A stretch of DNA of 64,000 bases from Elusimicrobiota bacterium (GCA_016207645.1 JACQPH010000045.1:6610-70609), one strand, 5' to 3'; numbered from the stretch's first letter, positions 1 to 63,413 are shown. The notes: generated from the letters alone by a model not told the origin. Made by a program: numbers and translations.

Positions 1-1013
1 ACCCCAGGAGCCTGATAGCGCTGCGCCTGCTGGCGCAGAACACGCTGGAACTCCCCAAGGACTTCGTGAAGGAACGCCTGGCCGCCGCGCTGGAATACCG
101 CGAGACCCTGGGCGTTTCGCGCGCCTGCCGGGTCTGCTTCGGGGAATCCGACGGCCTGCCCGGCCTGGTGGTGGACCGCTACGGCGACGCCGTGGTGGCG
201 GAGATCCTCTCCGCCGGCATGGAGCTGCTCAAGGACGAGGTCACGGCCGCCCTCACCGACCTGCTCCGCCCCCGCGGCATCGCCTACAGGAACACCCACC
301 AGTTCCGCGAGCTGGAAGGCCTCCGCTCCTACGAGGAGACAGCTTTCGGGGTCATGCCGGAGAAAGCGAAGATAACCGAGAACGGCCTGGAGTACTGGGT
401 GCCGATGGCGGGCGGGCAGAAGACCGGCTGGTACTTCGACCAGCGGGAGAACCGGGAAGCCCTCGCGCCTTTTTTCAAGGGGCGCAGGGTGCTGGACCTG
501 CATACCTACCTCGGGGCTTTCGCGCTGACGGCCGCCAGGGCCGGCGCCGAGGCGGTCTGGGCCGTGGACTCCTCGGAGAAGGCGATAGAGCTGGCGGAGG
601 AGAACGCCGCCCTCAACAAGCTCGAAAAGAAAGTGCTCTTCCGGAAGGAAAAAGCGGAGCGCGTCCTGGAGGCCCTGGAAGCCGGGCAGCTGCCGGAAGC
701 CCCCGATTTCATCCTGCTCGACCCGCCCAACATCGTGCGCAACAAGAAGCACCTGCCGCAGGCCCTGAAGATGCTGGGCCGCATGGCCGGCGCCGCCATG
801 AAGGCCCTGCCGAAGGGCGGCTACCTGGCCGTCTCCACCTGCTCGCACCATATCTCCAGGGGGCTGTTCATGGAAACCCTCGCCGGGGCCGCGGCCAGGG
901 CGGGCCGGAAGGCCGTGGTGGCGGAACTGCGCGGCCAGGCCAAGGACCACCCGGTGCTGCTCAGCATGCCCGAGACCGAGTACCTGCATTTCGCGCTGCT
1001 CCGCGTCGTTTGA
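1..1013 (+). CDS. Class I SAM-dependent RNA methyltransferase (RlmI/YccW-like), 5' end cut by window edge
   Basis: ORF 66..1013 stays open in the same frame back to nt 3 (..LELPKDFVKERL..), so the N-terminus lies upstream. Motifs GLPGLVVDRY, QKTGWYFDQRENR, VLDLHTYLGAF (SAM pocket), ILLDPP and STCSHH fit RlmI-type enzymes. Confidence 0.75.
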   Translation, partial: PRSLIALRLLAQNTLELPKDFVKERLAAALEYRETLGVSRACRVCFGESDGLPGLVVDRYGDAVVAEILSAGMELLKDEVTAALTDLLRPRGIAYRNTHQFRELEGLRSYEETAFGVMPEKAKITENGLEYWVPMAGGQKTGWYFDQRENREALAPFFKGRRVLDLHTYLGAFALTAARAGAEAVWAVDSSEKAIELAEENAALNKLEKKVLFRKEKAERVLEALEAGQLPEAPDFILLDPPNIVRNKKHLPQALKMLGRMAGAAMKALPKGGYLAVSTCSHHISRGLFMETLAGAAARAGRKAVVAELRGQAKDHPVLLSMPETEYLHFALLRVV

Positions 1014-1042
1014 ACGCGGGCCGCGCGCACCTGAAAGAAGAA

Positions 1043-1070
1043 CAGGGCCGGAAGGCCCTGCTCTTTTTTT
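1043..1070. terminator. Intrinsic terminator hairpin between convergent genes
   Basis: CAGGGCC-GGAA-GGCCCTG stem-loop followed by CTCTTTTTTT. It lies between the + strand methyltransferase stop and the - strand receiver gene stop. Confidence 0.6.
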
Positions 1071-1083
1071 ACTCCGACGCCGC

Positions 1084-1452
1084 TTAAATTATACTTTTTA
1101 CCACCTTGAGGATCTCCGTTTTGCTGGAAGGCTTGGTGATATAGGTCTTGGCCCCGTAGCCGATGGCCTGCTGTATCTCGTGGATGCTGCCCTCCACCGT
1201 CAGCATCACTACCGGCACGCTCCGGGTCACCTTATCCGACTTGATCTCCTTGCAGGCCTTCAGGCCGTCCATTACCGGCATATGGATGTCCAGCATCACC
1301 AGCGCGGGGAGCTCCTTGCGGGCCAGCTCCACGGCCTCCAGGCCGTTCTCGGCCCTAATGACGGTATAGCCCTCGCTCTCGAGCATGGTGGCGAGCAGCA
1401 GGCGCATATCGGCGTCGTCGTCGGCGATAAGGATCTTGTTATGGAGGGGCAT
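1084..1452 (-). CDS. Stand-alone response regulator receiver (CheY-like)
   Basis: ORF 1084..1506 trimmed to Met of MPLHNKILIADDD because the upstream part overlaps tRNA-Phe. AGGAG sits 7 nt before ATG 1452. Receiver residues: DDD, LDIHMPVMDG, MLTV, KP. Confidence 0.85.
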   Translation of the reverse strand: MPLHNKILIADDDADMRLLLATMLESEGYTVIRAENGLEAVELARKELPALVMLDIHMPVMDGLKACKEIKSDKVTRSVPVVMLTVEGSIHEIQQAIGYGAKTYITKPSSKTEILKVVKSII

Positions 1453-1476
1453 CACCAGTCTCCTGAAAACGGAATT

Positions 1477-1548
1477 TGCCGCGGGCTGGGATCGAACCAG
1501 CGACACCTGGTTTTTCAGACCAGTGCTCTACCACTGAGCTACCGCGGC
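1477..1548 (-). tRNA. tRNA-Phe (anticodon GAA)
   Basis: The reverse complement folds as a cloverleaf: acceptor GCCGCGG/CCGCGGC, D arm GCTC-AGTGGTA-GAGC, anticodon arm CTGGT-CTGAAAA-ACCAG, variable GTGTC, T arm GCTGG-TTCGATC-CCAGC, discriminator A. CCA is not encoded. Confidence 0.9.
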
Positions 1549-1609
1549 AAAAGGTGGTAAGTACCGCGCCTTCAATAGTAGCATTTTTTGAAAACGCTGT
1601 TAACCGGAC

Positions 1610-5318: not shown

Positions 5319-7487
5319 TTAGTGCCGGAAATGCCTGACCCCGGTCAGCACCATGGCTACCCCCAGCTTGTCGGCGGTTTCCACCACTTCATCGTCCCTC
5401 AGGGACCCGCCGGGGTGTATCACGGCGGTAGCCCCCAGCTTCACCCCCTCCTCGAGCGCGTCGGGGAAAGGGAAGAAAGCGTCCGAGGCCATGACCAAAG
5501 TCTCCGGACGGGGATTATCCTTTAAAAAGGCTTCCAGCTTATGCCCGGCCATGAAGACCGAGTCCAGCCGGGACATCTGCCCCGCCCCGATGCCGACGGT
5601 GCGCTTGTTGTCGGAGAGGACTATGGCGTTCGAGCGCACGTACTTGGCCGCCGTCCAGGCGAAGCGCAGCGCCTCCTCCTCTTCCGCGGTAGGCTTCCGC
5701 CTGGTAGGGACCTCCCATTTATCGCCGAGCAGCAGTTTATCGTCGGTACTGACCAGCACTTCGTCGCCGATCGAGCGCAGCACCAGGTTGTCGGCCGGGA
5801 AGCTGTCCCATTTAAGCAGGCGCAGATTGGTCTTCTTCGCGAAGATCGCCAGCGCTTTCTCGTCGTAGTCCGGCGCGCAGACGACTTCCACGAACCTCCT
5901 GGCCAGGAACTCGGCTATGCGCCCGTCCAGCCTGCGGTTCAGGGCGATTATCCCGCCGAAGGCGGAGAGCGGGTCGGTGCTCCACGCCCTTTCGAAGGCC
6001 TCCGCTATGTCCGCGCCGGTGCCGACCCCGCAGGGCGTGACATGTTTGAAGATGACCGCCGCCGGTTTCTCGAACTCCCGCACCGCCTGGTAAGTGCCGT
6101 AGGCGTCGAGGATATTATTATAGGAGAGCTCCTTTCCCTGCAGCTGGGCGAAGGGAAGTTTTTCCTTCCTGGAATAAAGCGCGCAGGCCTGGTGCGGGTT
6201 CTCGCCGTAGCGCAGCTCGCGCACCTTTGTCAGCGGGACCGCGAGGCTGGGCGGGAAGCCGGCGGACGCCGTCTTCGAATGCGCGGCGGCGATAGCCCCG
6301 TCGTAGGCGGCGGTATGGGCGAAGGCCTTGACGGCCAGCTCTTTTTTGAGTTCAAGGGGCAGGCTCCCCGAACCCGCTTTCAGCGCCGCCAGGACCGGGG
6401 CGTAATCGGCCGGCGAGGTCAGCACCGCCACCGACCGGTAGTTCTTGCCCGCGGCGCGCAGCAGAGCCACGCCGCCGATATCTATGTTCTCTATCAGTTC
6501 CTCCGACCACGGAGCGGCTTTTTTGGCCGTCTCGGCGAAGGGATAAAGGTTCACCACCACCATGTCTATGGGCTCAATGCCGAATTTGAAGACCGTCCCG
6601 GCGTGGACGGAATTATCCCGCCGGTAAAGGATCCCGCCGTGCACGGCCGGGTGCAGGGTCTTCACCCTGCCGTCGAGCATCTCGGGAAAGCCGGTAAGGG
6701 TCTCGAGAGCGCGCACCGGCACGCCCGCTTCCTTCAGGAGTTTATAAGTGCCGGAAGTGGAGACCACCTCCACGCCTTCGGCGGCCAGGCCGCGGCAGAA
6801 TTCCACCGCGCCGCTCTTGTCGGAAACCGAGATCAGGGCGCGCCGCACTTTCCCGGTCTCGGGCGCCGGTCCGGAAAGCTCCACCTTGCGGCCTTTGACT
6901 TTAAGGAGGTCCGCGCAGAATAAAGCGGCGGCTTTAGGATAGACGGCCAGCTCGGCGGTATTTACTCTTTTAGCCAGGTCTTCGGGGGTGTCGCCCGGCA
7001 ATACGGGCACGGGCTGCTGGAGTATTATGGGCCCGCAGTCGTAGTTCTCGTCTACGAAATGCACGGTGACCCCGCTTACTTTCGCGCCGGACGCTATGAC
7101 GGCTTCGTGGACTTTGAGGCCGTAGAAGCCTTTCCCGCCGAAGGCCGGCAGCAGCGCCGGGTGGACGTTCATTATCCTGCCGCTGAAGGCGGAGAGGAGC
7201 CTGGGACCGAGTTTGAGCATGAAGCCCGCCAGGCAGACCAGGTCGGCCTTATGCTTCAGGCAGAGGCCGGCGAGATGCTCGTCATAAGCTTCGGGGGTCT
7301 TGAAATCACCGGGAACGGCGGTTTCGGCCGGGATCCCGGCTTTGGCCGCGCGCTCAAGCGCGCCGGCGCCGGGCTTGCTGGAAACGACCAGGGCTATTAT
7401 TCCCTTTATACGCCCATCCCTGGCCGCGTCTATCAAAGCCTGCAGATTAGTGCCGCCGCCGGAAGCGAAAACGACTATATTTTTCAT
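5319..7487 (-). CDS. purN-purH: Fusion of GAR transformylase (PurN) with AICAR transformylase/IMP cyclohydrolase (PurH)
   Basis: Residues ~1-200: FASGGGTNL, NVHPALLPAFGG, HFVDENYDCGPII (PurN). Remainder: ALISVSDKSG MGS-like IMP cyclohydrolase domain and a long AICARFT domain. It is one uninterrupted 722-aa ORF. Confidence 0.85.
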   Translation of the reverse strand: MKNIVVFASGGGTNLQALIDAARDGRIKGIIALVVSSKPGAGALERAAKAGIPAETAVPGDFKTPEAYDEHLAGLCLKHKADLVCLAGFMLKLGPRLLSAFSGRIMNVHPALLPAFGGKGFYGLKVHEAVIASGAKVSGVTVHFVDENYDCGPIILQQPVPVLPGDTPEDLAKRVNTAELAVYPKAAALFCADLLKVKGRKVELSGPAPETGKVRRALISVSDKSGAVEFCRGLAAEGVEVVSTSGTYKLLKEAGVPVRALETLTGFPEMLDGRVKTLHPAVHGGILYRRDNSVHAGTVFKFGIEPIDMVVVNLYPFAETAKKAAPWSEELIENIDIGGVALLRAAGKNYRSVAVLTSPADYAPVLAALKAGSGSLPLELKKELAVKAFAHTAAYDGAIAAAHSKTASAGFPPSLAVPLTKVRELRYGENPHQACALYSRKEKLPFAQLQGKELSYNNILDAYGTYQAVREFEKPAAVIFKHVTPCGVGTGADIAEAFERAWSTDPLSAFGGIIALNRRLDGRIAEFLARRFVEVVCAPDYDEKALAIFAKKTNLRLLKWDSFPADNLVLRSIGDEVLVSTDDKLLLGDKWEVPTRRKPTAEEEEALRFAWTAAKYVRSNAIVLSDNKRTVGIGAGQMSRLDSVFMAGHKLEAFLKDNPRPETLVMASDAFFPFPDALEEGVKLGATAVIHPGGSLRDDEVVETADKLGVAMVLTGVRHFRH

Positions 7488-47432: not shown

Positions 47433-48809
47433 TCAGCAGCCGGCTTTCCGGTAAAGCCTGGCGGCGGCTTTATTGGCGCGCTCCGCCAGCTTGAACTCGT
47501 CGACATTGACCAGGCGGCCGTTCTTTACCGCCACTTTGCCGTTGACTATGGTGTATTTCGTCCGGTGGGAACAGCCGCAGAAAAGCAGCGAGGCCAGCGG
47601 GTCCGACTTTGAACCCGCGAAGTCCAGCCCGCTTACGTCGAAGACGGCTATATCGGCGGCCTTCCCGGGCTCTATGGAACCTATGTCGTCGCGCCCCAGC
47701 ACCGAGGCCCCGCCGCGGGTGGCCAGCCTGAAAGCGTCCCGCGCCGGCATGGCTTCCACGCCGGCCTTCACTCGCTGCACCAGCATGGCCTGGCGTATCT
47801 CGCCCAGCATATCGGAGGAGTCGTTGGAGGCCGAACCGTCCACGGCCAGGCCCACGGGGACCTTGTGGTTCAGGAACATCCGGATGGGCGCTATGCCCGA
47901 GCCTAGCCGCAGATTGGAGCAGGGGCAGTGGGCGGCACCGGTCCGGGTCCCGCCCATTTTTTTCGCCTCGGCCTCGTTTATGAAAACGCAGTGCGCGAAC
48001 CAGGCGTTACCCTCGGAAACCCAGCCGACGGACTCCATGTATTCCAACGGGCGCATTTTAAAGAGCTTTTTGCAGAAAGCCTCTTCATCTATGGTTTCCG
48101 CCAGGTGGGTGTGCATACGCACCCCCCATTTTTTGGCCATCACGGCGGTGAGCTTCAGCAGTTCCGTGGTGACCGAGAAAGGCGAGCAGGGCGCCAGCGC
48201 CAGGCGGGTCATGGCGAACTTCCGCGGATCGTGGAACTTGCGCACCAGCCGCTCGCAGTCCTTCATGATGAAGTCCTCGGTCTGCACCACGCTGTCCGGC
48301 GGCAGACCGCCTTTGGAGCGGCCCCTGGACATGGAGCCGCGCGTGGCGTGGAAGCGCATGCCCAGCTCGCGGGCCGCCTCTATCTGCGTGTCTATGAAGA
48401 AGCCGCTGTCCTTTTCGGGGAACAGGTAAAGGTGGTCGGAACTGGTGGTACAGCCGGTCAGCAGCAGCTCCCCCAGGCCGACCTGGGTGCTGGCGTAGAC
48501 GGCCTCGGGGTCGATATGCTTCCAGATGTCGTAAAGATAGATAAGCCAGTCGAAAAGCTTGGCGTCCTGCACCTTGGGCAAATTGCGGGTAAGCGTCTGG
48601 TAAAGGTGGTGATGGGTGTTGACGAAACCGGGCAGGACGACGCAGCCTTTCGCGTCTATGACCGCGTCCGCTTTGACCCTGAGAGCATTCCCGACCTTCT
48701 TTATTTCCGCGCCCTCGATGTAGACTTCGCCGCCCTTTATCTCGCTGCCCTTCCCGTCCATGGTGGCCAGCACCAGCGCGTTCTTTATCAGGATGGATCT
48801 TGTCGGCAT
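47433..48809 (-). CDS. Amidohydrolase of the 8-oxoguanine/guanine (isoxanthopterin) deaminase group
   Basis: ORF 47433..49091 trimmed to MPTRSILIKNALV. VNTHHHLYQTLTR metal motif, HTHLAE, AVDGSASND. Confidence 0.85.
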   Translation of the reverse strand: MPTRSILIKNALVLATMDGKGSEIKGGEVYIEGAEIKKVGNALRVKADAVIDAKGCVVLPGFVNTHHHLYQTLTRNLPKVQDAKLFDWLIYLYDIWKHIDPEAVYASTQVGLGELLLTGCTTSSDHLYLFPEKDSGFFIDTQIEAARELGMRFHATRGSMSRGRSKGGLPPDSVVQTEDFIMKDCERLVRKFHDPRKFAMTRLALAPCSPFSVTTELLKLTAVMAKKWGVRMHTHLAETIDEEAFCKKLFKMRPLEYMESVGWVSEGNAWFAHCVFINEAEAKKMGGTRTGAAHCPCSNLRLGSGIAPIRMFLNHKVPVGLAVDGSASNDSSDMLGEIRQAMLVQRVKAGVEAMPARDAFRLATRGGASVLGRDDIGSIEPGKAADIAVFDVSGLDFAGSKSDPLASLLFCGCSHRTKYTIVNGKVAVKNGRLVNVDEFKLAERANKAAARLYRKAGC

Positions 48810-48837
48810 ACGGGGTTCTTTGCTCCGAACGGGTTTA

Positions 48838-48873
48838 TTATCCGCTGAAAATATTATAGTAAAATAAGGATAA
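48838..48873. promoter_or_regulatory. AT-rich divergent control region with TTATCC..GGATAA inverted repeat bracketing -10-like hexamers
   Basis: TTATCC 48838..48843 and GGATAA 48868..48873. TATTAT/TATAGT at 48852..48860. Lies between divergent catabolic genes. Confidence 0.35.
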
Positions 48874-48902
48874 GGGCAAAGACGGCCGCAACCGGAGAAG
48901 CC

Positions 48903-51467
48903 ATGAAAAAGACCATAAAATTCCTTTCCGACGCGCAGCTCAAGAGCGAGGCGGACCGCTGCCTCTACTGCGAGGAGAAGCCCTGCAAGACGGCCTGCCC
49001 GGCGGATTGCTCCCCGGGGGATTTCATCATGGCCGTGCGGCAGATGGAGAATTCGGATTTCAAGCGCTCGGCCGCCCTGATCATGGGCCACAATACCTTC
49101 GGCGGCGTCTGCGGTGCGGTCTGCCCCGACTGGTTCTGCGTAAAGGCCTGCTCCCGGAAGATCTTCGACAACCCCATAAACATACCGGCGGTGCAGGCCG
49201 CCGTAGTGCAGAAAGCCAAGGAGTTGGGGATGATGCCCGAATTCAGGCCGGCTAAGCCCAACGGGAAGAAAGTCGCCGTAGTGGGCGCCGGGCCTGCCGG
49301 TTTAGGCGCGGCCGGCACGCTGGCGCAGCTGGGCTACAAAGTGGACATTTTTGAAAAGGCTAAGAAGACCGGCGGCGCCTGTAATCTTATACCGGAAAAG
49401 CGCCTGCCGGCGGAAGTACTCCGCACCGAGATAGAATTCGTAAGAACGCTGGGCGACATCTCTATCAAGACCGGCTCGGCGGTAAAGGACCCGGCCTCGC
49501 TGCTGAAAAAATACGGGGCGGTCATAGTGACCGCCGGCGTGGCGGACCAGATAAGGCTGAATATCCCCAACGAGGGCCTGGGAGTGGAAGGACTGGAATT
49601 CCTGGCGAACCGGAAAAAATATCCGCTCAAGGGGAAGAACGTGGCCGTGATAGGCGGCGGGGCCGTGGCGGCCGACTGCGCGATGACGGCGCTGGAAGCC
49701 GGGGCGCATAAAGCGGAGATCTTCACCCGGAAGAACATAGGCCATATCCAGCTTTCGCAGAAGGAACTGCACGACCTCATCGGGGCCGGGGTGAACATAA
49801 ACGCCAAATCCCGCATAACCGGCATTCTGGCCGCCGGAAAGAGGATAAACGGCATCACCGTGGCCCGCCTGGACGAGAAGGCTAACGATATCAAGGGGTC
49901 CTGCCAGGTCCGCTCCGACATAGACTTCGTGGTGCTGGCCATAAAGAACCTGCCGGTCTTCACCGACAGGAAGAAGAAGGGCGTTTTTCTCGCCGGGGAC
50001 TGCCGCAACGGCGCCTCCACCGTGGTGGAAGCCGTGGCCTCGGCCAAGAACGCCGCCCTCGAGGCCGACGCCTACCTGCGCGGCGGCAAGCCCGTCCCGC
50101 GCGCCGGGTTGTTCCCCGGGGCCATGAGCGCCTATGAAAAGAACATCATGAACGGCGAACTGGCCTATACGCGGAAGGTCTGCGGCAGGACCGATTCCTG
50201 GTCCACCGACAAGAAAAGCGCCGTCATCCTGAAAGGCAGGAACATGCTGCCGGTGGACCTGAGCACCGACTTCTTCGGCCGCAAGCTGCTTTCCCCGTTC
50301 CTTATCTCCGCCTCCCCCCACTCGGACGGCTACGACCAGGTGAAGCGCGCCTACGAGGCCGGCTGGCCCGGCGTGGTGATGAAGACCGCCTTCGACGGGC
50401 TGCACATACACATCCCCTCGGAGTACATGGTCACCTTCAGCGAGAGCACCTACGGCAATTCCGACAACGTGTCGGGCCACCCGCTGGACCGGGTCTGCGC
50501 CGAAGTGGCCAGGCTGGTGAAGGAATACCCGGACCGCCTCACCGCGGCCTCCACCGGCGGCCCGGTGACCGGGAACGACGAGGCCGACAGGAAAGCCTGG
50601 CAGTCGAATACCCTTAAGCTGGAAAAAGCCGGGGCTATGGCTATAGAATATTCCCTCTCCTGCCCGCAGGGCGGCGACGGCACCAAGGGCGATATCGTTT
50701 CGCAGGACCCCGAGCTGTCCGCCAGGATCATAGGCTGGGTGATGGAAGTTTCCGACCCCGAAGTGCCGAAGCTTTTCAAGCTGACCGGCGCCGTCACCGC
50801 CATCTGGCAGGTGGTGAACGCTATAAAGCGGGTTTACGCCGGATACCCGCATAAGAAGGCCGGCATAACGCTGGCCAATTCCTTCCCGGCTCTGGCTTTC
50901 CGCAAGCGCCTGTCCGGGAAAGGGAAATGGGAGGAAGGCATGGTGGTGGGCATGAGCGGCGAGGGCGTGGCCCCCATCAGCAATCTCACCATCTCCAAGG
51001 CCGTGAACCTGGGCGTGCCCATCTCCGGCAACGGCGGGCCCATGGACTACAAGGCCGCCGCGCATTTCCTGGCGCTCGGCGCGAAGTCGGTGCAGTTCTG
51101 CACCGTGGTCATGAAGCACGGCTTCGGCATCATAGACGAGCTCAACTGGGGGCTCAGCCACATGCTCGAGGAGAAAGGCTACAAGTCAGTCGAGGAATTC
51201 ATCGGCTGCGCCCTGCCCGGGCCCGTGACGAACTTCCCCGACCTCACCCCGGTAAAGAACATCCCGTCGGTGGACGCGGAGCTCTGCCGCCACTGCGGCA
51301 ACTGCGCGCGCTGCGGCTACCTGGCGGTGAAGCTGGACGGGGACAAGGTGCCTAAGTTCGACGCCTCGAAGTGCATAGGCTGCTCGCTCTGCGTCAAGAA
51401 ATGCTTCTCCGGCGCGCTGAAGATGCGCAAGCGCACCGCGGAGGAGCTCAGGGTTTGTCCGGAATAA
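48903..51467 (+). CDS. Dihydropyrimidine-dehydrogenase-like fusion: GltD/PreT-type FeS-FAD-NAD(P)H module + PreA/DHODH-type FMN barrel + 2x[4Fe-4S]
   Basis: N-terminus CLYCEEKPCKTACP, VAVVGAGPAGLGAA and AVIGGGAVAADCA Rossmann motifs. Central TIM-barrel part with IEYSLSCPQGGDG. C-terminal CRHCGNCARC / CIGCSLCVKKC. Confidence 0.85.
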   Translation: MKKTIKFLSDAQLKSEADRCLYCEEKPCKTACPADCSPGDFIMAVRQMENSDFKRSAALIMGHNTFGGVCGAVCPDWFCVKACSRKIFDNPINIPAVQAAVVQKAKELGMMPEFRPAKPNGKKVAVVGAGPAGLGAAGTLAQLGYKVDIFEKAKKTGGACNLIPEKRLPAEVLRTEIEFVRTLGDISIKTGSAVKDPASLLKKYGAVIVTAGVADQIRLNIPNEGLGVEGLEFLANRKKYPLKGKNVAVIGGGAVAADCAMTALEAGAHKAEIFTRKNIGHIQLSQKELHDLIGAGVNINAKSRITGILAAGKRINGITVARLDEKANDIKGSCQVRSDIDFVVLAIKNLPVFTDRKKKGVFLAGDCRNGASTVVEAVASAKNAALEADAYLRGGKPVPRAGLFPGAMSAYEKNIMNGELAYTRKVCGRTDSWSTDKKSAVILKGRNMLPVDLSTDFFGRKLLSPFLISASPHSDGYDQVKRAYEAGWPGVVMKTAFDGLHIHIPSEYMVTFSESTYGNSDNVSGHPLDRVCAEVARLVKEYPDRLTAASTGGPVTGNDEADRKAWQSNTLKLEKAGAMAIEYSLSCPQGGDGTKGDIVSQDPELSARIIGWVMEVSDPEVPKLFKLTGAVTAIWQVVNAIKRVYAGYPHKKAGITLANSFPALAFRKRLSGKGKWEEGMVVGMSGEGVAPISNLTISKAVNLGVPISGNGGPMDYKAAAHFLALGAKSVQFCTVVMKHGFGIIDELNWGLSHMLEEKGYKSVEEFIGCALPGPVTNFPDLTPVKNIPSVDAELCRHCGNCARCGYLAVKLDGDKVPKFDASKCIGCSLCVKKCFSGALKMRKRTAEELRVCPE

Positions 51468-55523: not shown

Positions 55524-56774
55524 TTATCGCCCGCCGTGAACGATCTTCCCCTTCTTCACCGTCATCGAGCACTGGCTGGCGCCGAAATAATAGCAGAGCT
55601 CCCGGTAATCGTCCGCTTTATAGAAGGCCAGGTCGGCCTGCAGGCCGGGGACCACGCTGCCCACCCTGTCGCCTATGCCCAGCGCCCAGGCCCCGTTCAC
55701 CGTGGCGGCGCAAAAGGCCTCCTCCGGCGTCATGCCGCAATGGGTGCAGGCCGCGGACAGGACGAACTGCATGTTCCAGCAGGGGCAGGTGCCGGGATTG
55801 AGATCCGTAGCCAGGGCCACGGGCACGCCCGCGGCGATAAGCTCGCGCGCCGGCGGGTATTTCGTCAGGCCGAGGTAATAATTGGAAGCCGGCAGCAGCG
55901 TCGCTATGGTCCCCGCCTCGCGCATGGCCGTTATGTCCTGCGCATAGACATGGTCGGCGTGGTCCGCGCTGAGGACCCCCGCCGCTATCCCGGCGCGGGT
56001 GCCGCCGTAGTTGGAAAGCTGCTCGGAATGTACCTTGGGCTTCAGGCCCAGGCTGGCGGCTTCCTTCAGGTAGGCCGTGGTCTGCTCCGGGGTGAAATAG
56101 CCCTTCTCGCAGAAGATATCCGCGAAGACGGCCAGCTTTTCGGCGGCGGCCTTAGGCAGGATCTCCGCCGTGACATAGGCCAGGTACTTCGCCGCGTCGC
56201 CGCTGAACTCCGGCGGCACGCTGTGCGCCGCCAGCAGGGTGGGCAGCATTTCAAGAGGGGTGAGCTTCTGCGCCTCGCGCACGGCCCGCAGCATTTTCAG
56301 CTCGGATTCCAGGCTCAGGCCGTAGCCGCTCTTCACCTCTGCCGTGGTGGTGCCGCAGGCGAGGAAACCCGCGGCCCGCGCGGCGAGCTGCTCCGCCATG
56401 GCCCTCCGGGACTGCCGGCGCACCGCCCCTATGCTGGAAAGTATCCCCCCGCCGGCGGCCTTTATCTCCTGGTAGGAGGCCCCGGCGGCGCGCATCGAAA
56501 AATCCTTGAGGCGCGGCTCGGCGAAAACGGCGTGGGTATGGCTGTCCACGAAACCTGGCAGGCAGATCCCGTTGACCTCCACCTTCCTGGCTTTTTTAGC
56601 CAGGCGGTGGCGGGACACTACGGACCGCGGACCGGCCGCCTCTATGAGCCCGTTCTCCACCAGCACCTCGGCGTTCTTCACCAGCCCTATCTCGCGCATG
56701 GCTTCCCCCGCGCGGGGAACGGCGTCTCCGGCGAAGGTGAGGAGCTGTTTGATACCGGTGAAGAGGGTGGCCAT
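55524..56774 (-). CDS. hutI: Imidazolonepropionase
   Basis: PGFVDSHTHAVF, YQEIKAAGGGILSS, amidohydrolase His/Asp set. Confidence 0.9.
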   Translation of the reverse strand: MATLFTGIKQLLTFAGDAVPRAGEAMREIGLVKNAEVLVENGLIEAAGPRSVVSRHRLAKKARKVEVNGICLPGFVDSHTHAVFAEPRLKDFSMRAAGASYQEIKAAGGGILSSIGAVRRQSRRAMAEQLAARAAGFLACGTTTAEVKSGYGLSLESELKMLRAVREAQKLTPLEMLPTLLAAHSVPPEFSGDAAKYLAYVTAEILPKAAAEKLAVFADIFCEKGYFTPEQTTAYLKEAASLGLKPKVHSEQLSNYGGTRAGIAAGVLSADHADHVYAQDITAMREAGTIATLLPASNYYLGLTKYPPARELIAAGVPVALATDLNPGTCPCWNMQFVLSAACTHCGMTPEEAFCAATVNGAWALGIGDRVGSVVPGLQADLAFYKADDYRELCYYFGASQCSMTVKKGKIVHGGR

Positions 56775-57271
56775 TATCTGAAATTCTCGAACTGGAGGGT
56801 TATCCCGTAATCCCCGCCGCGCAGCAGGGCCATCACGTTCTGGAGCTCGTCCTTGGACTTGGAGGTGACGCGCAGCGCGTCGCCCTGGATCGAGACATTG
56901 GCCTTGAGCTTTTGGTCTTTTATCGCCCTGACTATCTCCTTGGCTTTCTCCTGGGGGATGCCCTGCTGCACCTTCACGGCCTGCTTGGCCGTCCCGCCCA
57001 GGGCGCTCTCCACCTTCTGCGCCTCGAAATTCTTGACCGGCAGGCCGCGCTTGGAGATCTTCGTCAGCAGCACGTCGTAAAGGGCCTTCACCTTGTAGGC
57101 GTCGCTGGACTGCAGCATTATGACATTGGCCTTCTTGTCGAAGTTTATCTCCGAATTGGAGCCCTTGAAGTCGTAGCGGTTGATCACTTCCTTCATGGCG
57201 ATGGCTATAGCCTCGTCCACCACCGTATACTCCACCTTTGAAACCACGTCGAAACTGAATTCAGAAGCCAT
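56774..57271 (-). CDS. yajQ: YajQ/UPF0234-family nucleotide-binding protein
   Basis: SFDVVSKVEYTVVDEAIAIAMKEVINRYDFKGS. 165 aa. 1-nt overlap with the hutI start. Confidence 0.85.
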   Translation of the reverse strand: MASEFSFDVVSKVEYTVVDEAIAIAMKEVINRYDFKGSNSEINFDKKANVIMLQSSDAYKVKALYDVLLTKISKRGLPVKNFEAQKVESALGGTAKQAVKVQQGIPQEKAKEIVRAIKDQKLKANVSIQGDALRVTSKSKDELQNVMALLRGGDYGITLQFENFR

Positions 57272-57290: not shown

Positions 57291-58964
57291 TTATTTAAGC
57301 ATCGGTATCTTCACGCCTTTCTTTCTGGCGAAATCCGAAGCCAGCTTGTAGCCGGCGTCGGCGTGGCGCAGCACGCCCATGGCCGGGTCGTTGGTGAGCA
57401 CCCGCTCCAGCCGCAGCGCCATCTCTTTCGTGCCGTCGGCCACGGTCACCTGCCCGGCGTGCAGGGAATAGCCCATGCCCACCCCGCCGCCGTGGTGGAA
57501 AGAGACCCAGCTGGCCCCGGAAGCGGTATTGATAAGGGCGTTAAGGATAGGCCAGTCGGCTATGGCGTCGGAGCCGTCCTTCATGGATTCGGTCTCGCGG
57601 AAAGGGCTGGCCACGGAGCCGGAATCCAGGTGGTCGCGCCCTATCACGATAGGCGCCGAGATCTTCCCCTTCTTCACCAGGTCGTTGATGCGCAGGCCCA
57701 TCAGGTGGCGCTCGCCGTAGCCCAGCCAGCAGATGCGCGAAGGCAGGCCCTGGAACTTCACCTTCCTGGAAGCGAGGTCCATCCAGCGGCGCAGATGCTC
57801 GTCACCGGGGAACAGCTCGAGCGCGAGTTTATCCGTGACGGCGATGTCCTGCGGGTCGCCGGAGAGGGCGGCCCAGCGGAAAGGGCCTTTCCCCTCGCAG
57901 AAAAGGTCGCGGATATAGGCCGGCACGAAGCCGGGGAAGTCGTAAGCGCGCTTCACGCCCTGCTTGAAAGCCATGGTGCGGATATTGTTGCCGTAGTCGA
58001 AAACGACGGCGCCGGCCTTCCGGAGCTTCAGCATGGCCTCGACGTGTAGCGCGATGGATCCCATGGCGAGCTTCAGGTACTTATCCGGGTCCGCCCGGCG
58101 CAGGGCGTCGGCTTCCTTCACGCCGTAGCCCTTCGGGATATAGCCTTTCAGCGGGTCGTGCGCCGAGGTCTGGTCGGTCAGCACGTCTATCTTCACGCCG
58201 CGGCGGGCCAGCTCCGGCAGCACCTCGGCGCAGTTGCCCAGCAGGCCGATGGAAAGCGGCTTCTTCGCTTTCAGGGCCGCGGCGGCCAGGCGCAGGGCCT
58301 CGTCCAGGTCGCGGCTCATTATGTCCACATAAGCGGTGTCCAGGCGCTTCTGTATGCGCGTCTCGTCGGCCTCGATTATCAGCGCCACTCCGCCGTTCAT
58401 GGTCACGGCCAGGGGCTGGGCGCCGCCCATGCCGCCGAGCCCGCCGGTGACGGTAAGTTTCCCGGCCAGGTCGCCGCCGAAATGCTTGCGCGCGCAGGCG
58501 GCAAAGGTCTCGTAGGTGCCCTGCAGGATGCCCTGCGTGCCGATATAGATCCAGGAGCCGGCCGTCATCTGGCCGTACATCATCAGGCCTTTCTTTTCCA
58601 GCTCGTCGAAGGTCTCCCAGTTCGCCCAGTTCCCCACAAGATTGGAATTGGCTATGATAACGCGCGGTGAATATTCATGCGTGCGCAGTATCCCTACGGG
58701 CTTCCCCGACTGCACCAGCAGGGTCTCGTCGTTCTCCAGGCCCCGCAGGGAGGAAACTATGGCGTGATAGCAGTCCCAGTTGCGGGCGGCCTTGCCGCGC
58801 CCGCCGTAGACGATAAGGTCTTCGGGGCGCTCGGCCACTTCCGGGTCCAGATTGTTCATCAGCATGCGCAGGGCCGCCTCCTGCTGCCAGCCTTTGCAGG
58901 AGAGCTTATTGCCCCGCGCCGCGCGGATGACCCGCTCTTCGATCTTCGGTGAAGCCATGATCAT
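57291..58964 (-). CDS. hutU: Urocanate hydratase
   Basis: [39 protein letters not shown]-binding motif. 557 aa. Confidence 0.92.
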
Positions 58965-58971
58965 ATCCTCG

Positions 58972-60504
58972 TTACCAGGAGCTCTTCAGCGCGCCTATCT
59001 CTTTTTCCACGGCCTCCAGGACCGAGCACTTCCTTACGGCCTCGGTCATGGCGTTATGGTCTATGAAAAGAGGCCGGTCCTCGTCCAGGTGCCTGACCAC
59101 TTTGCGGATGGCGGCATGGGCGGCGCGCGTGCCGTCACCGGCGCGGAAATGCCTGAAATCCACGCCCTGCGCGGCGGCTATCATCTCTATGGCCAGCACG
59201 CCGCAGGCGTTGTCGAGGATCTGCCTCGTCTTGAGCGCCGCGTTCATGCCCATGCTGACGAAATCCTCCTGGTCCGCGGCCGCGGGGATGGACTGGATGC
59301 AGGAGGGCGCGCTCAGTATGCGCTGCTCCACCACCAGCATGTCCGCCGTGTACTGGCTGAGCATCAGGCCGGAGAACATCCCGGCGCCCTTGGTCAGGAA
59401 AGCCGGCAGTCCTACGCTCAGGGCCGGGTTCAGCAGGCGGTTCAGGCGCCTTTCGGAGAGCACGGACACCATGGTGACGCCGGCCCCCACCATATCCAGG
59501 GGCATGCTGACCGGGGTGCCCTGGAAATTGGCGCCGGTGAGCACGGTGTCGCTCTCCGGCAGGAAAATGGGATTATCGGCCACGCCGTTGATCTCTATCT
59601 CGAACTGTTCGCGGGCGAAGGCGAGGTGGTCCCGGAAAGCGCCGATGACCTGCGGGGTGGAGCGCATGGAATAGGCGTCCTGCACTTTCACTTTGAGCTT
59701 CCCGGTGACCAGGTCGGAACCGGCCACCACGGAGCGGATATTCGCGGCGGAGGTGATGGCGCCTTTGAAACCCCGCAGCTCGTGCAGGCGGGTGTCGTAC
59801 GGCTTCATGTTGGCCATGAGCGCCTCCAGGGACATGGCCGCCGTGATCTCGGCCTGTTTGACCCAGCGCTCCGCGTCGTAGAGCTCCAGGCAGCCCATGC
59901 CGGTCAGCAGGTTGGAGCCGTTTATGGCGGCGAGGCCGTCGCGCGCCTGCAGCCCCGGGACGGGGATGCCCGCCTTCTTCATGGCCGCCCTGGTGGGCAT
60001 CCGCCTGCCCCGGTAGAAGCATTCACCCTCGCCCATGAGAGAAAGGGCCAGCTGGCTCATGGGAGCCAGGTCGCCGCAGGCGCCCACGCTGCCCTTCTCG
60101 CAGACTACCGGCGTAAGCCCCTTGTTGAGCATAGCCACGTAGGCCAGGGTTATTTCAGGCCGGCAGCCGGAATGCCCCCTGCTGTGGACGCTTATCCGCA
60201 GCAGCATGGCCGCGCGCACGTGTTCGACGGGGGCCGGCTTGCCTATGCCGGCGGCATGGTTGTAGATCAGGTAGCGCTGGAACTGCTTGACCTGCTCGTC
60301 GGTGAGCACCAGCTCGGAGAATTCGCCTATGCCGGTATTCACGCCGTACATTATCTCGCGGGCCGTGATCTTCTTCTCCAGCATGGCGCGGCATTTCCTG
60401 ATGCGCGCCGCGGCCGCGGGGCTCAAAGCCACTTTCGCGCCGTGCCGCGCGACGCTGACCACGTCTTCGATAGCAAGGGCGTCTCCGCCCACTTTGATGA
60501 TCAT
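58972..60504 (-). CDS. hutH: Histidine ammonia-lyase (MIO enzyme) with Ala-Cys-Gly in place of the Ala-Ser-Gly triad
   Basis: ORF 58972..61146 trimmed to [15 protein letters not shown] (ATG 60504). [26 protein letters not shown]. Confidence 0.9.
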
Positions 60505-60524
60505 AATCGTATCCTCGGGACCGC

Positions 60525-61238
60525 CTATAGGTAGCCGTAATACACGTACCTGGTCCAGGCGCCCAGCAGGAGCGTGATCGCCACGCTCAGCCAGATGTTG
60601 ACGCGGGACATGTCGATGATGCGCTTCCGCTTTATGTAGAAGATCTGGAAGATCCAGGCCAGGGCGAAAGGGATCCACCAGTAGCCGGCCGCGAAGAAAA
60701 AGGCCCAGAGCACCACCCGCTCGAAGATGAGGAAGTATTTCTCGTCGAAGTGCGGAAAGGCCATTCCGAACATGTCCTTCTCGAAGAAGTAGACCAGCAC
60801 GGTGGTGAAATGGGTGACCATCACCAGCATCACGGCGATGGCCGACCATTTCTCCCCCAGCAGCAGGCCGGGCCCCTCGATGTTCACCGGGGAGATCATG
60901 AACAGCACGTAGAAATGCAGTATCTGGTCCGTCAGGAAGCTGACCGTGTTGTCCTTGAAGCGCAGGGACTTCATGCTGTAGATCCGCAGTTCGTCTATCA
61001 GGAAATGCGCGGCCAGCATCAGCCCCAGCGCCCCCCAGCCGTTCACCGGCAGCGGCCCCAGCCTGACCCAGGTCTCCGGGAGGTAGTTCCAGGTCAGGGC
61101 CGCTGACACGACGAAGTGGGTCAGGCAGTGCAGCAGCATGCCCCACACGTTCTTGCGCTTCATGCGGTTGACGACGTCGAGCTGCAGCGTGAAGTCCGCC
61201 AGCAGGTGCGAGAGTAAAAGGCGCCAGAAGATGATCAT
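60525..61238 (-). CDS. DUF3307-family integral membrane protein
   Basis: N-terminal LLLSHLLADFTLQ motif and His-containing TM helices. Abuts the cyclase stop. Confidence 0.6.
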   Translation of the reverse strand: MIIFWRLLLSHLLADFTLQLDVVNRMKRKNVWGMLLHCLTHFVVSAALTWNYLPETWVRLGPLPVNGWGALGLMLAAHFLIDELRIYSMKSLRFKDNTVSFLTDQILHFYVLFMISPVNIEGPGLLLGEKWSAIAVMLVMVTHFTTVLVYFFEKDMFGMAFPHFDEKYFLIFERVVLWAFFFAAGYWWIPFALAWIFQIFYIKRKRIIDMSRVNIWLSVAITLLLGAWTRYVYYGYL

Positions 61239-63413
61239 TTAGCCCTTTGAGGTCAGGTTGAAGGACTGGTCCCAGTCCTTTGGCGGCTCCTTTATGTACA
61301 GCTCCGCCTGCTCTATGTAGAACTGCGAGGGCCCGTCGTTAGGGCGGGCCGCCAGCGCGGCCCGGAAATCCTTCAGCGAACCGGCGTAGTCGGCCTTGTA
61401 GAACTTCTCTATGCCGGCCTCGTAGTGTCCGAGCATGGCCTTGACCTCCGGCGCCGCGTTGCCCTTGCGGGCGAAGGGTTCGTACACCTTCACCGGGATG
61501 GCCTTGCCGACCACGCGGATGCTGCCGAGGTAGCGGTGGTCGAAGAAGTCTTTCAGTCCCCCGAAGGTCTCCTCGCTGGTCATGATCTTGGAGTGGAAGA
61601 ACTTGTTTGCGCCCTCCAGGCGGGAGGACAGGTTCACCGCGTCGCCCATCACGGTGTAGGACAGCCTGGTCTTGGAGCCCATGTTGCCCACGACCATCGG
61701 GCCCGAGTTCACGCCCACGCGCGCCGCGGGTTTTATAGTGTACTGTGTGAGCGCCTCGTTCAGGCGGGCCATCTCCACCTGGCAGTCGACGGCCGCCAGC
61801 AGCGCCAGCTTCTTATGGTCCGCCTGGTCCAGCGGGGCGTTCCAGAAAGCCACGATGCAGTCGCCGATGTATTTGTCCACCGTGCCGTCGTGCTTGAGGA
61901 TGATCTCGGTGAAGGCGGACAGGTATTCGTTGAGCATGGAGGTCAGTTCCTCGGGCGTCATCTTCTCCGACATGGTGGTGAAGCCCGCCAGGTCCAGGAA
62001 GAAAGCGGTCATGTCCCGCTTCTCGCCGCCGAGGGAGAGCTTGGACGGGTCCTTGGTGATGAGCTCGACCACCTTGGGGGACAGGTACTGCCCGAAAGTG
62101 TTCTTGATCCACTTCTTCTCGCGGCCCTCGGCCAGGCCCTTATCGACCGTTATATAGGCGAAAGGAAGGAAAAGGGACAACAGCACCGAGCCGAAAGGCA
62201 TGAGGACGTTATGGGCAAGCAGCACGACGTCGATCACGCACATGGCCCCTATGACCGTGAAACAGACCGAGATCAGCAGGGCCAGGGAATGCCTGCGCAG
62301 GTAAACCGGCAGCCAGGGCAGCAGCAGGACCAGGAGCACGGTATAGGTCACGGTCAGCGGCTCGCGGAAATCGCCCGCCAGCAGGTTGTCGGTGAACGTA
62401 GCGTGGACCTCGACGCCCGGCAGCTGCTTCGATAACGGGCTGGGCATGTGGTCGAACGCGCCGATAGCCGTGGAGCCGACCAGGGTCACCCCGCCCTTCA
62501 GGGCTTCTTTTTCCTCTTTGCTGAGCTGGCCGCTCAGGATATCCGCGAAGGAGATATGCCTGTAGCTCGAAGACTTGATGCTCTTCTTGTCCTTATCCCA
62601 GCCGGGATGAAGTTTGCGGCTGATGTAGTCCCGGTAATTCAGCGTTCTCTCGCCGCCGTATTCCACGAAAAGCTGGGAAAGCGACTTTCCGGAATAGATC
62701 GCGTAGGAAGCCAGCCCGATGGAGGGGATCGCGATGTCGGCGCATTCCTTCCAGCACTTTACGTCCTTCAGGCCGGCTTTCGAATAAGTCATCCAGTCGT
62801 CGGCGTTGCCGTCGAAATCGGTGTCCTTGCCGTAAAAAGGCATATAGCGCCTCACCTGCCCGTCGTTGTCCAGCGTAAGGTCGACATGCGGCTGGGCGAT
62901 AATGGCGCTGGCCCCGGCGAGGCCGTCGATAGGGGGCTTTATCTTCAGGGTATCCAGGTCGATATGGACCAGGTTGACCACGTTCCCGACCCGGGCCACG
63001 GCCTGCACGTACTGCCTGTTGTCCTCGGGAATATCGCGCTCGGACTTGGAGAGTATCACGTCGAATACTATGCCTTTAACCCCGTACTTGTTAAGTTTCT
63101 CCACCAGTTCGCCGTAATAGCGCCTCTTGAGAGGCCAGCCGTAGCGGTCCAGAGTGAGCTCGTCGATGGCGGTTATCGTTATCTTCGGATTGGACGGTTT
63201 ATTGAGATACTTGCCGAAAAGGAAGGTATTGGAAAGAGAATCGGAACTCCAATCCAGCCAGGACAGCATTTGCGGCAAGTTCACTATAAAGTGGTTCCAG
63301 GTGTAGTCTATCGGTTTCGTGGCCGGAATAACCACGGAGAAGAAAAGCCAGAGGAAGGAAAAAACAGCGGTGCCTATGTAGAACTTCGTATTACCGGGGA
63401 CAGTTGTTTTCAT
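61239..63413 (-). CDS. CHASE2-sensor membrane class III adenylate/guanylate cyclase (class IIIb-like Lys/Thr pair)
   Basis: Periplasmic CHASE2 (ITAIDELTLDRYGWPLKRRYYGELVEKL, VFDVILSKSE), TM block, cyclase core FFLDLAGFT, DKYIGDCIVAFW, SYTVMGDAVNLSSRLEG, helical C-terminal tail. Confidence 0.85.
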   Translation of the reverse strand: MKTTVPGNTKFYIGTAVFSFLWLFFSVVIPATKPIDYTWNHFIVNLPQMLSWLDWSSDSLSNTFLFGKYLNKPSNPKITITAIDELTLDRYGWPLKRRYYGELVEKLNKYGVKGIVFDVILSKSERDIPEDNRQYVQAVARVGNVVNLVHIDLDTLKIKPPIDGLAGASAIIAQPHVDLTLDNDGQVRRYMPFYGKDTDFDGNADDWMTYSKAGLKDVKCWKECADIAIPSIGLASYAIYSGKSLSQLFVEYGGERTLNYRDYISRKLHPGWDKDKKSIKSSSYRHISFADILSGQLSKEEKEALKGGVTLVGSTAIGAFDHMPSPLSKQLPGVEVHATFTDNLLAGDFREPLTVTYTVLLVLLLPWLPVYLRRHSLALLISVCFTVIGAMCVIDVVLLAHNVLMPFGSVLLSLFLPFAYITVDKGLAEGREKKWIKNTFGQYLSPKVVELITKDPSKLSLGGEKRDMTAFFLDLAGFTTMSEKMTPEELTSMLNEYLSAFTEIILKHDGTVDKYIGDCIVAFWNAPLDQADHKKLALLAAVDCQVEMARLNEALTQYTIKPAARVGVNSGPMVVGNMGSKTRLSYTVMGDAVNLSSRLEGANKFFHSKIMTSEETFGGLKDFFDHRYLGSIRVVGKAIPVKVYEPFARKGNAAPEVKAMLGHYEAGIEKFYKADYAGSLKDFRAALAARPNDGPSQFYIEQAELYIKEPPKDWDQSFNLTSKG

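Follow-up and report, generated by a model that had tools for sequence, protein, structure and literature searches.

The stretch analysed here (the window: 64,000 nucleotides of the Elusimicrobiota bacterium assembly GCA_016207645.1, JACQPH010000045.1:6610-70609) carries on its minus strand a hutH-like gene for a histidine ammonia-lyase (HAL), in which a cysteine occupies the central position of the tripeptide presumed to form the prosthetic group. This group, 4-methylidene-imidazol-5-one (MIO), is known from textbooks as a cofactor that forms autocatalytically, from a precursor invariably given as X-Ser-Gly. The gene, the tripeptide and the ribosome-binding site are as follows.

58972-60504, minus strand: hutH-like gene (stop codon included), encoding a 510-residue HAL of a 'Cys/PMSQ' subfamily; assigned by PF00221, NF006871 and an AlphaFold2 (AF2) model
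60073-60081, minus strand: presumed MIO-forming tripeptide Ala142-Cys143-Gly144, read from the sequence, with Cys where the canonical Ser stands
60512-60516, minus strand: GAGGA ribosome-binding site, 8 nucleotides 5' of the ATG at 60504, read directly

The Ala-Cys-Gly codons and the lyase gene

Read directly, the minus strand gives GCC (60081-60079), TGC (60078-60076) and GGC (60075-60073), exactly as the original prediction had placed them, within a segment (60120 to 60040) that includes GGC AGC GTG GGC GCC TGC GGC GAC CTG GCT CCC ATG AGC CAG. The open reading frame (ORF) listed for this gene, of 724 residues, is over-extended at its 5' end; translation starts at the ATG at 60504, with GAGGA upstream, which yields the 510-residue HAL and makes TGC its codon 143, as (60504-60078)/3 = 142. 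When aligned with PDB sequences by phmmer, Cys143 lies opposite Ser143 of Pseudomonas putida HAL (1gkm), in 'kgsvgaSgdlapl', which bears out the earlier claim of a Cys at the MIO-precursor position; the accompanying statement that classical HALs read GSVGASGDLAPLAH is correct as well. Recognised MIO precursors have Ser in the middle, as (Ala/Ser/Thr/Cys)-Ser-Gly followed by Asp, whereas the window HAL reads Ala-Cys-Gly-Asp.

The protein matches PF00221 across the whole profile (positions 1-466 of 466; residues 10-468) with 548.7 bits (gathering threshold 27.3) and an E-value of 1.4e-164, and scores 539.2 bits with the NCBIfam HAL subfamily model NF006871, above its cut-off of 524. Its scores with aminomutase, tyrosine ammonia-lyase (TAL) and phenylalanine ammonia-lyase (PAL) models are far under their cut-offs (Tyr 2,3-aminomutase, 373 against 501; Phe aminomutase, 348 against 800; FlxA TAL, 335 against 700; PAL, 210 against 519). 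All eight catalytic or substrate-binding residues are present, with Tyr53, His83, Asn195, Gln275, Tyr278, Arg281, Phe327 and Glu413 equivalent to Y53, H83, N195, Q277, Y280, R283, F329 and E414 of the P. putida enzyme, and they are kept in 89-91 of 91 thinned members of the subfamily defined below. Ala142, Gly144 and Asp145 are invariant in all 91, and Phe327 (Phe329 in P. putida) is found in 90. His83 and Glu413 are residues of the HAL type, the His83/Glu414 pair being the imidazole-binding pair of HAL (10.1101/2025.08.13.670108). The AF2 model (pLDDT, the predicted local distance difference test score, 78.7; predicted template-modelling score, pTM, 0.85) has as its top Foldseek matches the P. 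putida HAL structures 1eb4, 1gk3 and 1b8f (TM score 0.89-0.90; E about 5e-29). The PF00221 and NF006871 scores, together with the hutU/hutI operon described below, uphold the earlier assignment to the HAL/PAL/TAL family, most probably as a HAL.

Cysteine and serine at residue 143

A database protein 100% identical to the window HAL comes from an Elusimicrobia metagenome-assembled genome (MAG), and an identical protein is encoded on the separately assembled Logan contig SRR12113385. The Ala-Cys-Gly triad (ACG, in the context G-A-C-G-D) is present in every one of the 120 best homologues, which share 78-100% identity and come from MAGs with the labels Elusimicrobia, Acidobacteriota, Thermoanaerobaculaceae and Myxococcales. 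A further unbiased neighbourhood, for which a Draconibacterium-like Bacteroidales protein served as seed, likewise has Cys in 120 of 120 proteins. Among related loci the Cys143 codon is TGC in 81 and TGT in 20, and because both codons are in use it is the residue, at the amino-acid level, that is kept.

A library of 1.84 billion representatives at 50% identity contained 2332 family members at E<=1e-30, and among the best 150 of these the triad was ASG in 124, SSG in 9, ACG in 8, and TSG and CSG in one each, with 7 unparsed by the motif search. GTDB species representatives were also scanned with a degenerate DNA pattern for G-S-x-G-A-C-G-D, for which roughly 280 chance matches are expected genome-wide, each match being checked by tblastn; of the 120 matches listed, 105 proved to be true HAL homologues and the other 15 had arisen by chance, which places ACG in at least 105 GTDB species. 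The subfamily form occurs in Elusimicrobia, Acidobacteriota/Aminicenantes, Gemmatimonadota, Myxococcota, Bacteroidales, Ignavibacteria/Melioribacter/Kapabacteria, Zixibacteria, Cloacimonadota, Delongbacteria, Eisenbacteria, Sumerlaeota, Clostridia/Eubacteriales, Anaerolineales, Thermoleophilia, and the archaeal Thermoplasmata and Poseidoniia. Within the family ACG is in the minority, though widespread. The original prediction called a native Cys unusual, and this is true of characterised enzymes but not of sequence space, where ACG is fixed in large lineages and found in those 105 or more species; as a claim of rarity it falls, the triad being common, if not already described. Its rationale of an anaerobic, sulfide-tolerant setting fares no better, since the same Cys is found in Aliidiomarina taiwanensis, Poseidoniia archaea and Gemmatimonadales, all aerobic lineages, and also in Bacteroidales, Clostridia and Aminicenantes; an anaerobe-specific adaptation is therefore rejected as a general rule.

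Most ACG proteins, the window HAL included, belong to one subfamily (at least 47% identical to the window HAL), which is monophyletic with respect to classical HALs in a neighbour-joining (NJ) tree. The subfamily differs from classical HALs by F59I, P135C, L149M, H151Q, K188R, E189D, T197S, C282S, G325A, H328Q, T408A and S409A, and reads GVNTGIG, DLAPM(S/A) and PAAADQEDF in place of GINTGFG, DLAPLAH and PTSANQEDH; the classical SLRC and GGNFHGEP motifs are also replaced. The near-universal Cys of the classical SLRCxPQ motif has become Ser in the subfamily while Pro135 has become Cys, and GGNFHGEP has become GANFQGTP, which we take to resemble the plant PAL motif. All of these signature positions flank catalytic residues in the sequence.

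Cys143 is also found within otherwise classical HutH proteins: in an alphaproteobacterial group of seven (L020, L025, L080, L099, L119, P0228 and P0230), in two Thermoleophilia, and as single cases in Desulfobacteraceae, Bacteriovoracaceae and Planctomycetota. The cultured Aliidiomarina taiwanensis AIT1 (L064) encodes a P. putida-like HutH with Ala-Cys-Gly directly after hutU. These enzymes share with the window HAL the natural Ala-Cys-Gly at the MIO position, and three of them (L064, L091 and L099) adjoin hutU, but they are only 35-44% identical to it and bear the whole classical signature (GINTGFG, DLAPLAH, SLRC, GGNFH and PTSANQEDH). On their sequences, Cys in classical HutH is the outcome of independent Ser-to-Cys events.

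The reverse combination, a Ser with the subfamily signature, is found in an Anaerolineales sublineage of the subfamily, where Ser is present in 118 of 120 proteins and all other signature residues are kept (PVVCQKGSVGASGDLAPMAQAAL). The group around P0140 and P0272 is 66-69% identical to the window HAL and has the same signature, C135, M149, Q151, S282, A325 and Q328 included, but reads Ala-Ser-Gly, with an AGC Ser codon that lies one transversion away from TGC. The loci examined in this group are solitary, with no hutU nearby, unlike that of the window. Further Ser-bearing representatives with the subfamily signature are P0122, P0123, P0124 and P0126. In an NJ tree of 347 sequences, Fitch parsimony counts at least nine changes between Ser and Cys. 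Which of the two stands at residue 143 is not coupled to any other signature position. The idea that Cys143 must co-vary with other residues was rejected, as a classical HAL that has Cys retains the classical signature, and a subfamily member that has Ser retains the subfamily's. Because the swaps recur without changes at the other signature positions, Ser and Cys would be equivalent precursors rather than marks of a special maturation environment. The simplest reading of the sequences is that they are alternative precursors of one product, each under purifying selection, with occasional switches. In the NJ tree the Anaerolineales Ser group falls within Cys lineages, which suggests that the subfamily ancestrally had Cys; this was not relied on, since 95 of the tree sequences were chosen by the ACG DNA pattern and more Ser lineages occur among unbiased representatives.

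Some related sequences are broken or depart further from the triad. In a Chloroflexia MAG (L021) a Cys-type HAL at 5705-7162 (minus strand) is matched by tblastn in four pieces in differing frames, a sign of either a pseudogene or a faulty assembly, and the same 8-kb block holds an intact classical ASG HAL (217-1605, plus strand) and the start of hutU. Split tblastn matches also occur in L068, L076, L100 and L114. Five representatives that are 35-41% identical to the window HAL (P0186, P0191, P0211, P0216 and P0257) have no recognisable X-Ser/Cys-Gly-Asp motif and may be MIO-less trimethylammonia-lyases like those of Shewanella. At the triad, three aligned HAL-like sequences, not matched to identifiers, show a Tyr and then a gap.

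The hut operon and neighbouring genes

The HAL gene is followed on the same strand by genes for the next enzymes of histidine catabolism, and is preceded by a gene with no established link to HAL function.

57291-58964, minus strand: hutU, urocanate hydratase, 7 nucleotides after the HAL stop codon; TIGR01228, 954.2 bits (cut-off 375), with three urocanase Pfam domains
56774-57271, minus strand: yajQ (DUF520), of the cyclic-di-GMP-binding protein family, between hutU and hutI; PF04461, 1.2e-56; NF003819, 187.4 bits (cut-off 146)
55524-56774, minus strand: hutI, imidazolonepropionase, its start overlapping the yajQ stop by 1 nucleotide; TIGR01224, 411.8 bits (cut-off 298.15)
60525-61238, minus strand: DUF3307 membrane-protein gene, directly upstream of the HAL gene; PF11750, 7e-13

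The window HutU scores under the cut-offs of both thiourocanate hydratase models. Genes for a HAD hydrolase and a SIS-domain protein lie downstream on the strand of the hutH-hutU-yajQ-hutI array, and the order DUF3307-(RNase T)-HAL-hutU-(CsgG)-yajQ-hutI-HAD-SIS is kept in two other Elusimicrobia assemblies (L124 and L126), whose HALs are 85-89% identical to that of the window; the DUF3307 gene is the upstream neighbour in L123, L124, L125 and L126. The window HAL is the sole HAL homologue of its hutU-hutI array, as are its counterparts in the Elusimicrobia relatives. Because the gene order with hutU and hutI is kept in these relatives, the window gene is the hutH of the hut operon in its Elusimicrobia lineage. 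The Myxococcota MAG L001 also has a HAL-hutU pair. When the ORFs lying within 5 kb in 94 loci were clustered all against all, no conserved non-hut neighbour appeared in more than 6 of the 94, a maximum that three neighbour families reach, one of them a classical HAL paralogue.

The yajQ gene also stands between hutU and hutI in L124 (9878-10375) and L126 (9276-9773), and a gene for a CHASE2-domain nucleotide cyclase (window positions 61239-63413) is found with the DUF3307 gene just upstream of the HAL gene, in L124 and L126 too. These neighbours raise the possibility of a tie between nucleotide second messengers and histidine catabolism. Farther away in the window, an 8-oxoguanine-deaminase-like amidohydrolase gene (47433-49091, minus strand; NF006055, 640 bits, with the match starting at residue 98) is divergent from an 854-residue fusion (48903-51467, plus strand) of a glutamate-synthase-small-subunit-like NAD(P)/FeS module with a PreA-like dihydropyrimidine dehydrogenase. 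The apparent 189-nucleotide overlap of their 5' ends is probably due to a GTG start placed too far upstream in the deaminase ORF.

Maturation, alternative readings and known systems

The account that we favour, and consider probable, is that the window gene encodes a functional HAL, the first hut-pathway enzyme of its genome, which would make MIO autocatalytically from Ala142-Cys143-Gly144. In the mechanism proposed, the amide nitrogen of Gly144 would attack the carbonyl of Ala142, aided by compression from Phe327 and by Asp145, and the resulting ring would lose one water molecule. The side chain of residue 143 would then be beta-eliminated as H2S instead of H2O, giving the same MIO as in a classical HAL. 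The mature enzyme would deaminate L-histidine to urocanate, for further processing by the adjacent HutU and HutI. Cys would be one of two interchangeable precursors, with a single nucleotide between their codons (TGC/AGC or TGY/TCY), and lineages of the subfamily differ in which of the two is fixed. MIO is expected still to form because Ala, Gly, Asp145 and Phe are retained, because MIO-less relatives lack the whole triad, and because a hut enzyme must activate a primary amine; maturation by loss of H2S is a reasonable inference from these features. Langer, Lieber and Retey reportedly found (Biochemistry, 1994) that the S143C variant of P. putida HAL is converted post-translationally to the fully active wild-type enzyme, and loss of H2S from Cys143 would agree with that outcome.

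Several observations weigh against this account. The window HAL scores 525.5 bits with the hutH equivalog TIGR01225, slightly under its cut-off of 539.15, and the only label that NCBI gives to its relatives is 'aromatic amino acid ammonia-lyase'. The second shell round the catalytic residues is remodelled (F59I, P135C, L149M, H151Q, C282S, G325A, H328Q, T408A and S409A), and the AF2 model is of low confidence (pLDDT <50) in the active-site loops 53-63, 139-143, 274-279 and 373-412, so that the geometry of Cys143 is not readable from it. Most subfamily members are not beside hutU or hutI, a neighbour of this kind being found in only about 2 of 94 8-kb blocks, and P0027, P0075 and P0064 are solitary subfamily genes. 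Moreover, it is from sequence that we infer MIO formation, release of H2S and HAL activity for every natural ACG enzyme.

A first alternative, which we regard as unlikely, is that the Cys-bearing subfamily is a functionally distinct paralogue and not simply a histidase: either an MIO lyase (or aminomutase) whose substrate would be some other imidazole amino acid or a derivative of histidine, or else a partner subunit of classical HutH, with Cys and the signature residues reflecting that role. The monophyly of the subfamily with respect to classical HALs would fit this, as would the 13 or more signature substitutions beside catalytic residues (NFQGTP for NFHGEP and SMRS for SLRC among them), the score under the hutH equivalog cut-off and the rarity of nearby hut genes; yet the window gene and its Elusimicrobia relatives are each the only HAL of a hutU-hutI array, tightly coupled to a canonical hutU, and all carboxylate- and imidazole-binding residues are conserved. 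The decoupling of residue 143 from the signature positions also means that Cys itself does not define the subfamily. Part of the case for a paralogue comes from five tandem pairs, in which a classical HAL stands directly upstream of a Cys-type HAL on the same strand (L018:4868-7972, L019:3-3079, L024:891-4016, L076:552-4057 and L087:767-3840). They come from MAGs of Bacteroidia (L018), Melioribacteraceae (L019), Delongbacteria (L024 and L087) and Ignavibacteriaceae (L076); the upstream classical HALs are intact, have ASG or SSG triads and are 36-41% identical to the window HAL, and neither hutU nor hutI was detected in the 8-kb blocks of the five loci. Such pairs, which also count against the account favoured above, would not be expected of two fully redundant enzymes, and suggest non-redundant roles or hetero-oligomers.

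A related and bolder proposal, which we hold to be a little less likely still, is that the Cys-type proteins belong to a second histidase type, an ancient one, whose NFQGTP loop is PAL-like, with a second shell of its own and a distribution over more than 20 bacterial and archaeal phyla, to which the thiol gives a functional difference, and which works with the upstream HutH, or as a hetero-oligomer with it, in some Bacteroidota, Ignavibacteriota and Delongbacteria. If true, the thiol precursor could mean faster or oxygen-independent maturation of MIO, H2S being the better leaving group, or a redox-gated immature state.

It is less probable again that Cys143 is not eliminated at all, its thiol persisting as a switch (redox or regulatory) or reacting otherwise, for instance with the Ala142 carbonyl to form a thiazoline or thioester, so that the protein would lack MIO and be inactive or catalyse other chemistry. 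A Cys thiol is a better nucleophile than a Ser hydroxyl, X-Cys bonds are well known to undergo N-to-S acyl shifts, and the redox sensitivity suggested in the original prediction is compatible with the sequence alone. MIO-less relatives do exist (ergothionase and histidine betaine lyase), but these have lost the whole triad, whereas Ala142, Gly144, Asp145 and Phe327 are kept here almost without exception, which would be sensible only if the imidazolone forms. A need for the same end product is indicated by sublineages whose active site differs only in having Ser, a hut-operon enzyme acts on a primary amine and would need an electrophile, and the engineered S143C enzyme is said to mature to the wild-type form. 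Finally, the idea that TGC is a sequencing or assembly error for the Ser codon AGC or TCC, each one base away, in what is after all a MAG, can be dismissed as exceedingly improbable, given the identical protein on an independently assembled contig, Cys in 240 of 240 proteins of the two unbiased homologue sets and the same triad in at least 105 GTDB species.

What is new here is a natural variant of a known cofactor precursor, with a chemistry that was foreseen by mutagenesis 30 years ago. The middle residue of the MIO triad is defined as Ser and treated as invariant by Peng et al. 2022, and it is likewise Ser in the characterised HALs of a 2024 HAL paper; full-text literature searches, with most subscription journals outside their coverage, did not turn up any account of Ala-Cys-Gly as a natural triad. 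No mechanism is overturned, as the engineered S143C enzyme had already predicted that Cys can serve, and the prevalence should be only mildly surprising to a specialist. Even so, Ala-Cys-Gly appears to be widely used in nature, fixed in whole lineages of many phyla and swapping repeatedly with Ser, which would broaden the definition of the MIO cofactor. Mining or annotation by an 'ASG/TSG/SSG' motif would miss or mislabel thousands of lyases, and NCBI already withholds the HutH name from Cys-type proteins. A natural system is now at hand for comparing the elimination of H2O and H2S in MIO biogenesis, and the analysis has brought to light tandem HAL pairs and a HAL subfamily that is both large and uncharacterised.

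Among known systems, P. putida HutH (1B8F, 1GKM) resembles the window HAL in fold, in the eight catalytic and substrate residues, in the Ala-X-Gly-Asp loop and in its hutU/hutI pathway context. It differs in being only 34% identical over the structural alignment and in the second shell, where the window HAL has I59, C135, M149, Q151, S282, A325, Q328, A408 and A409. The engineered S143C form of the P. putida enzyme, reported to have a normal MIO, has the same Ala-Cys-Gly precursor, although in the window HAL the Cys is natural and under selection.

Another variation at the MIO site is seen in the MIO-less trimethylammonia-lyases (ergothionase 6S7J, histidine betaine lyase Swoo_3913, and SO_3057/SO_3299), which share with the window HAL the fold family (TM score 0.87 to 6s7j) and imidazole-type substrates. 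This group is described as having lost the triad (10.1101/2025.08.13.670108 and a second paper), and its members need a trimethylammonium leaving group; the window HAL, in contrast, retains Ala-Cys-Gly-Asp, with Ala, Gly, Asp145 and Phe327 all kept, and stands beside a canonical hutU.

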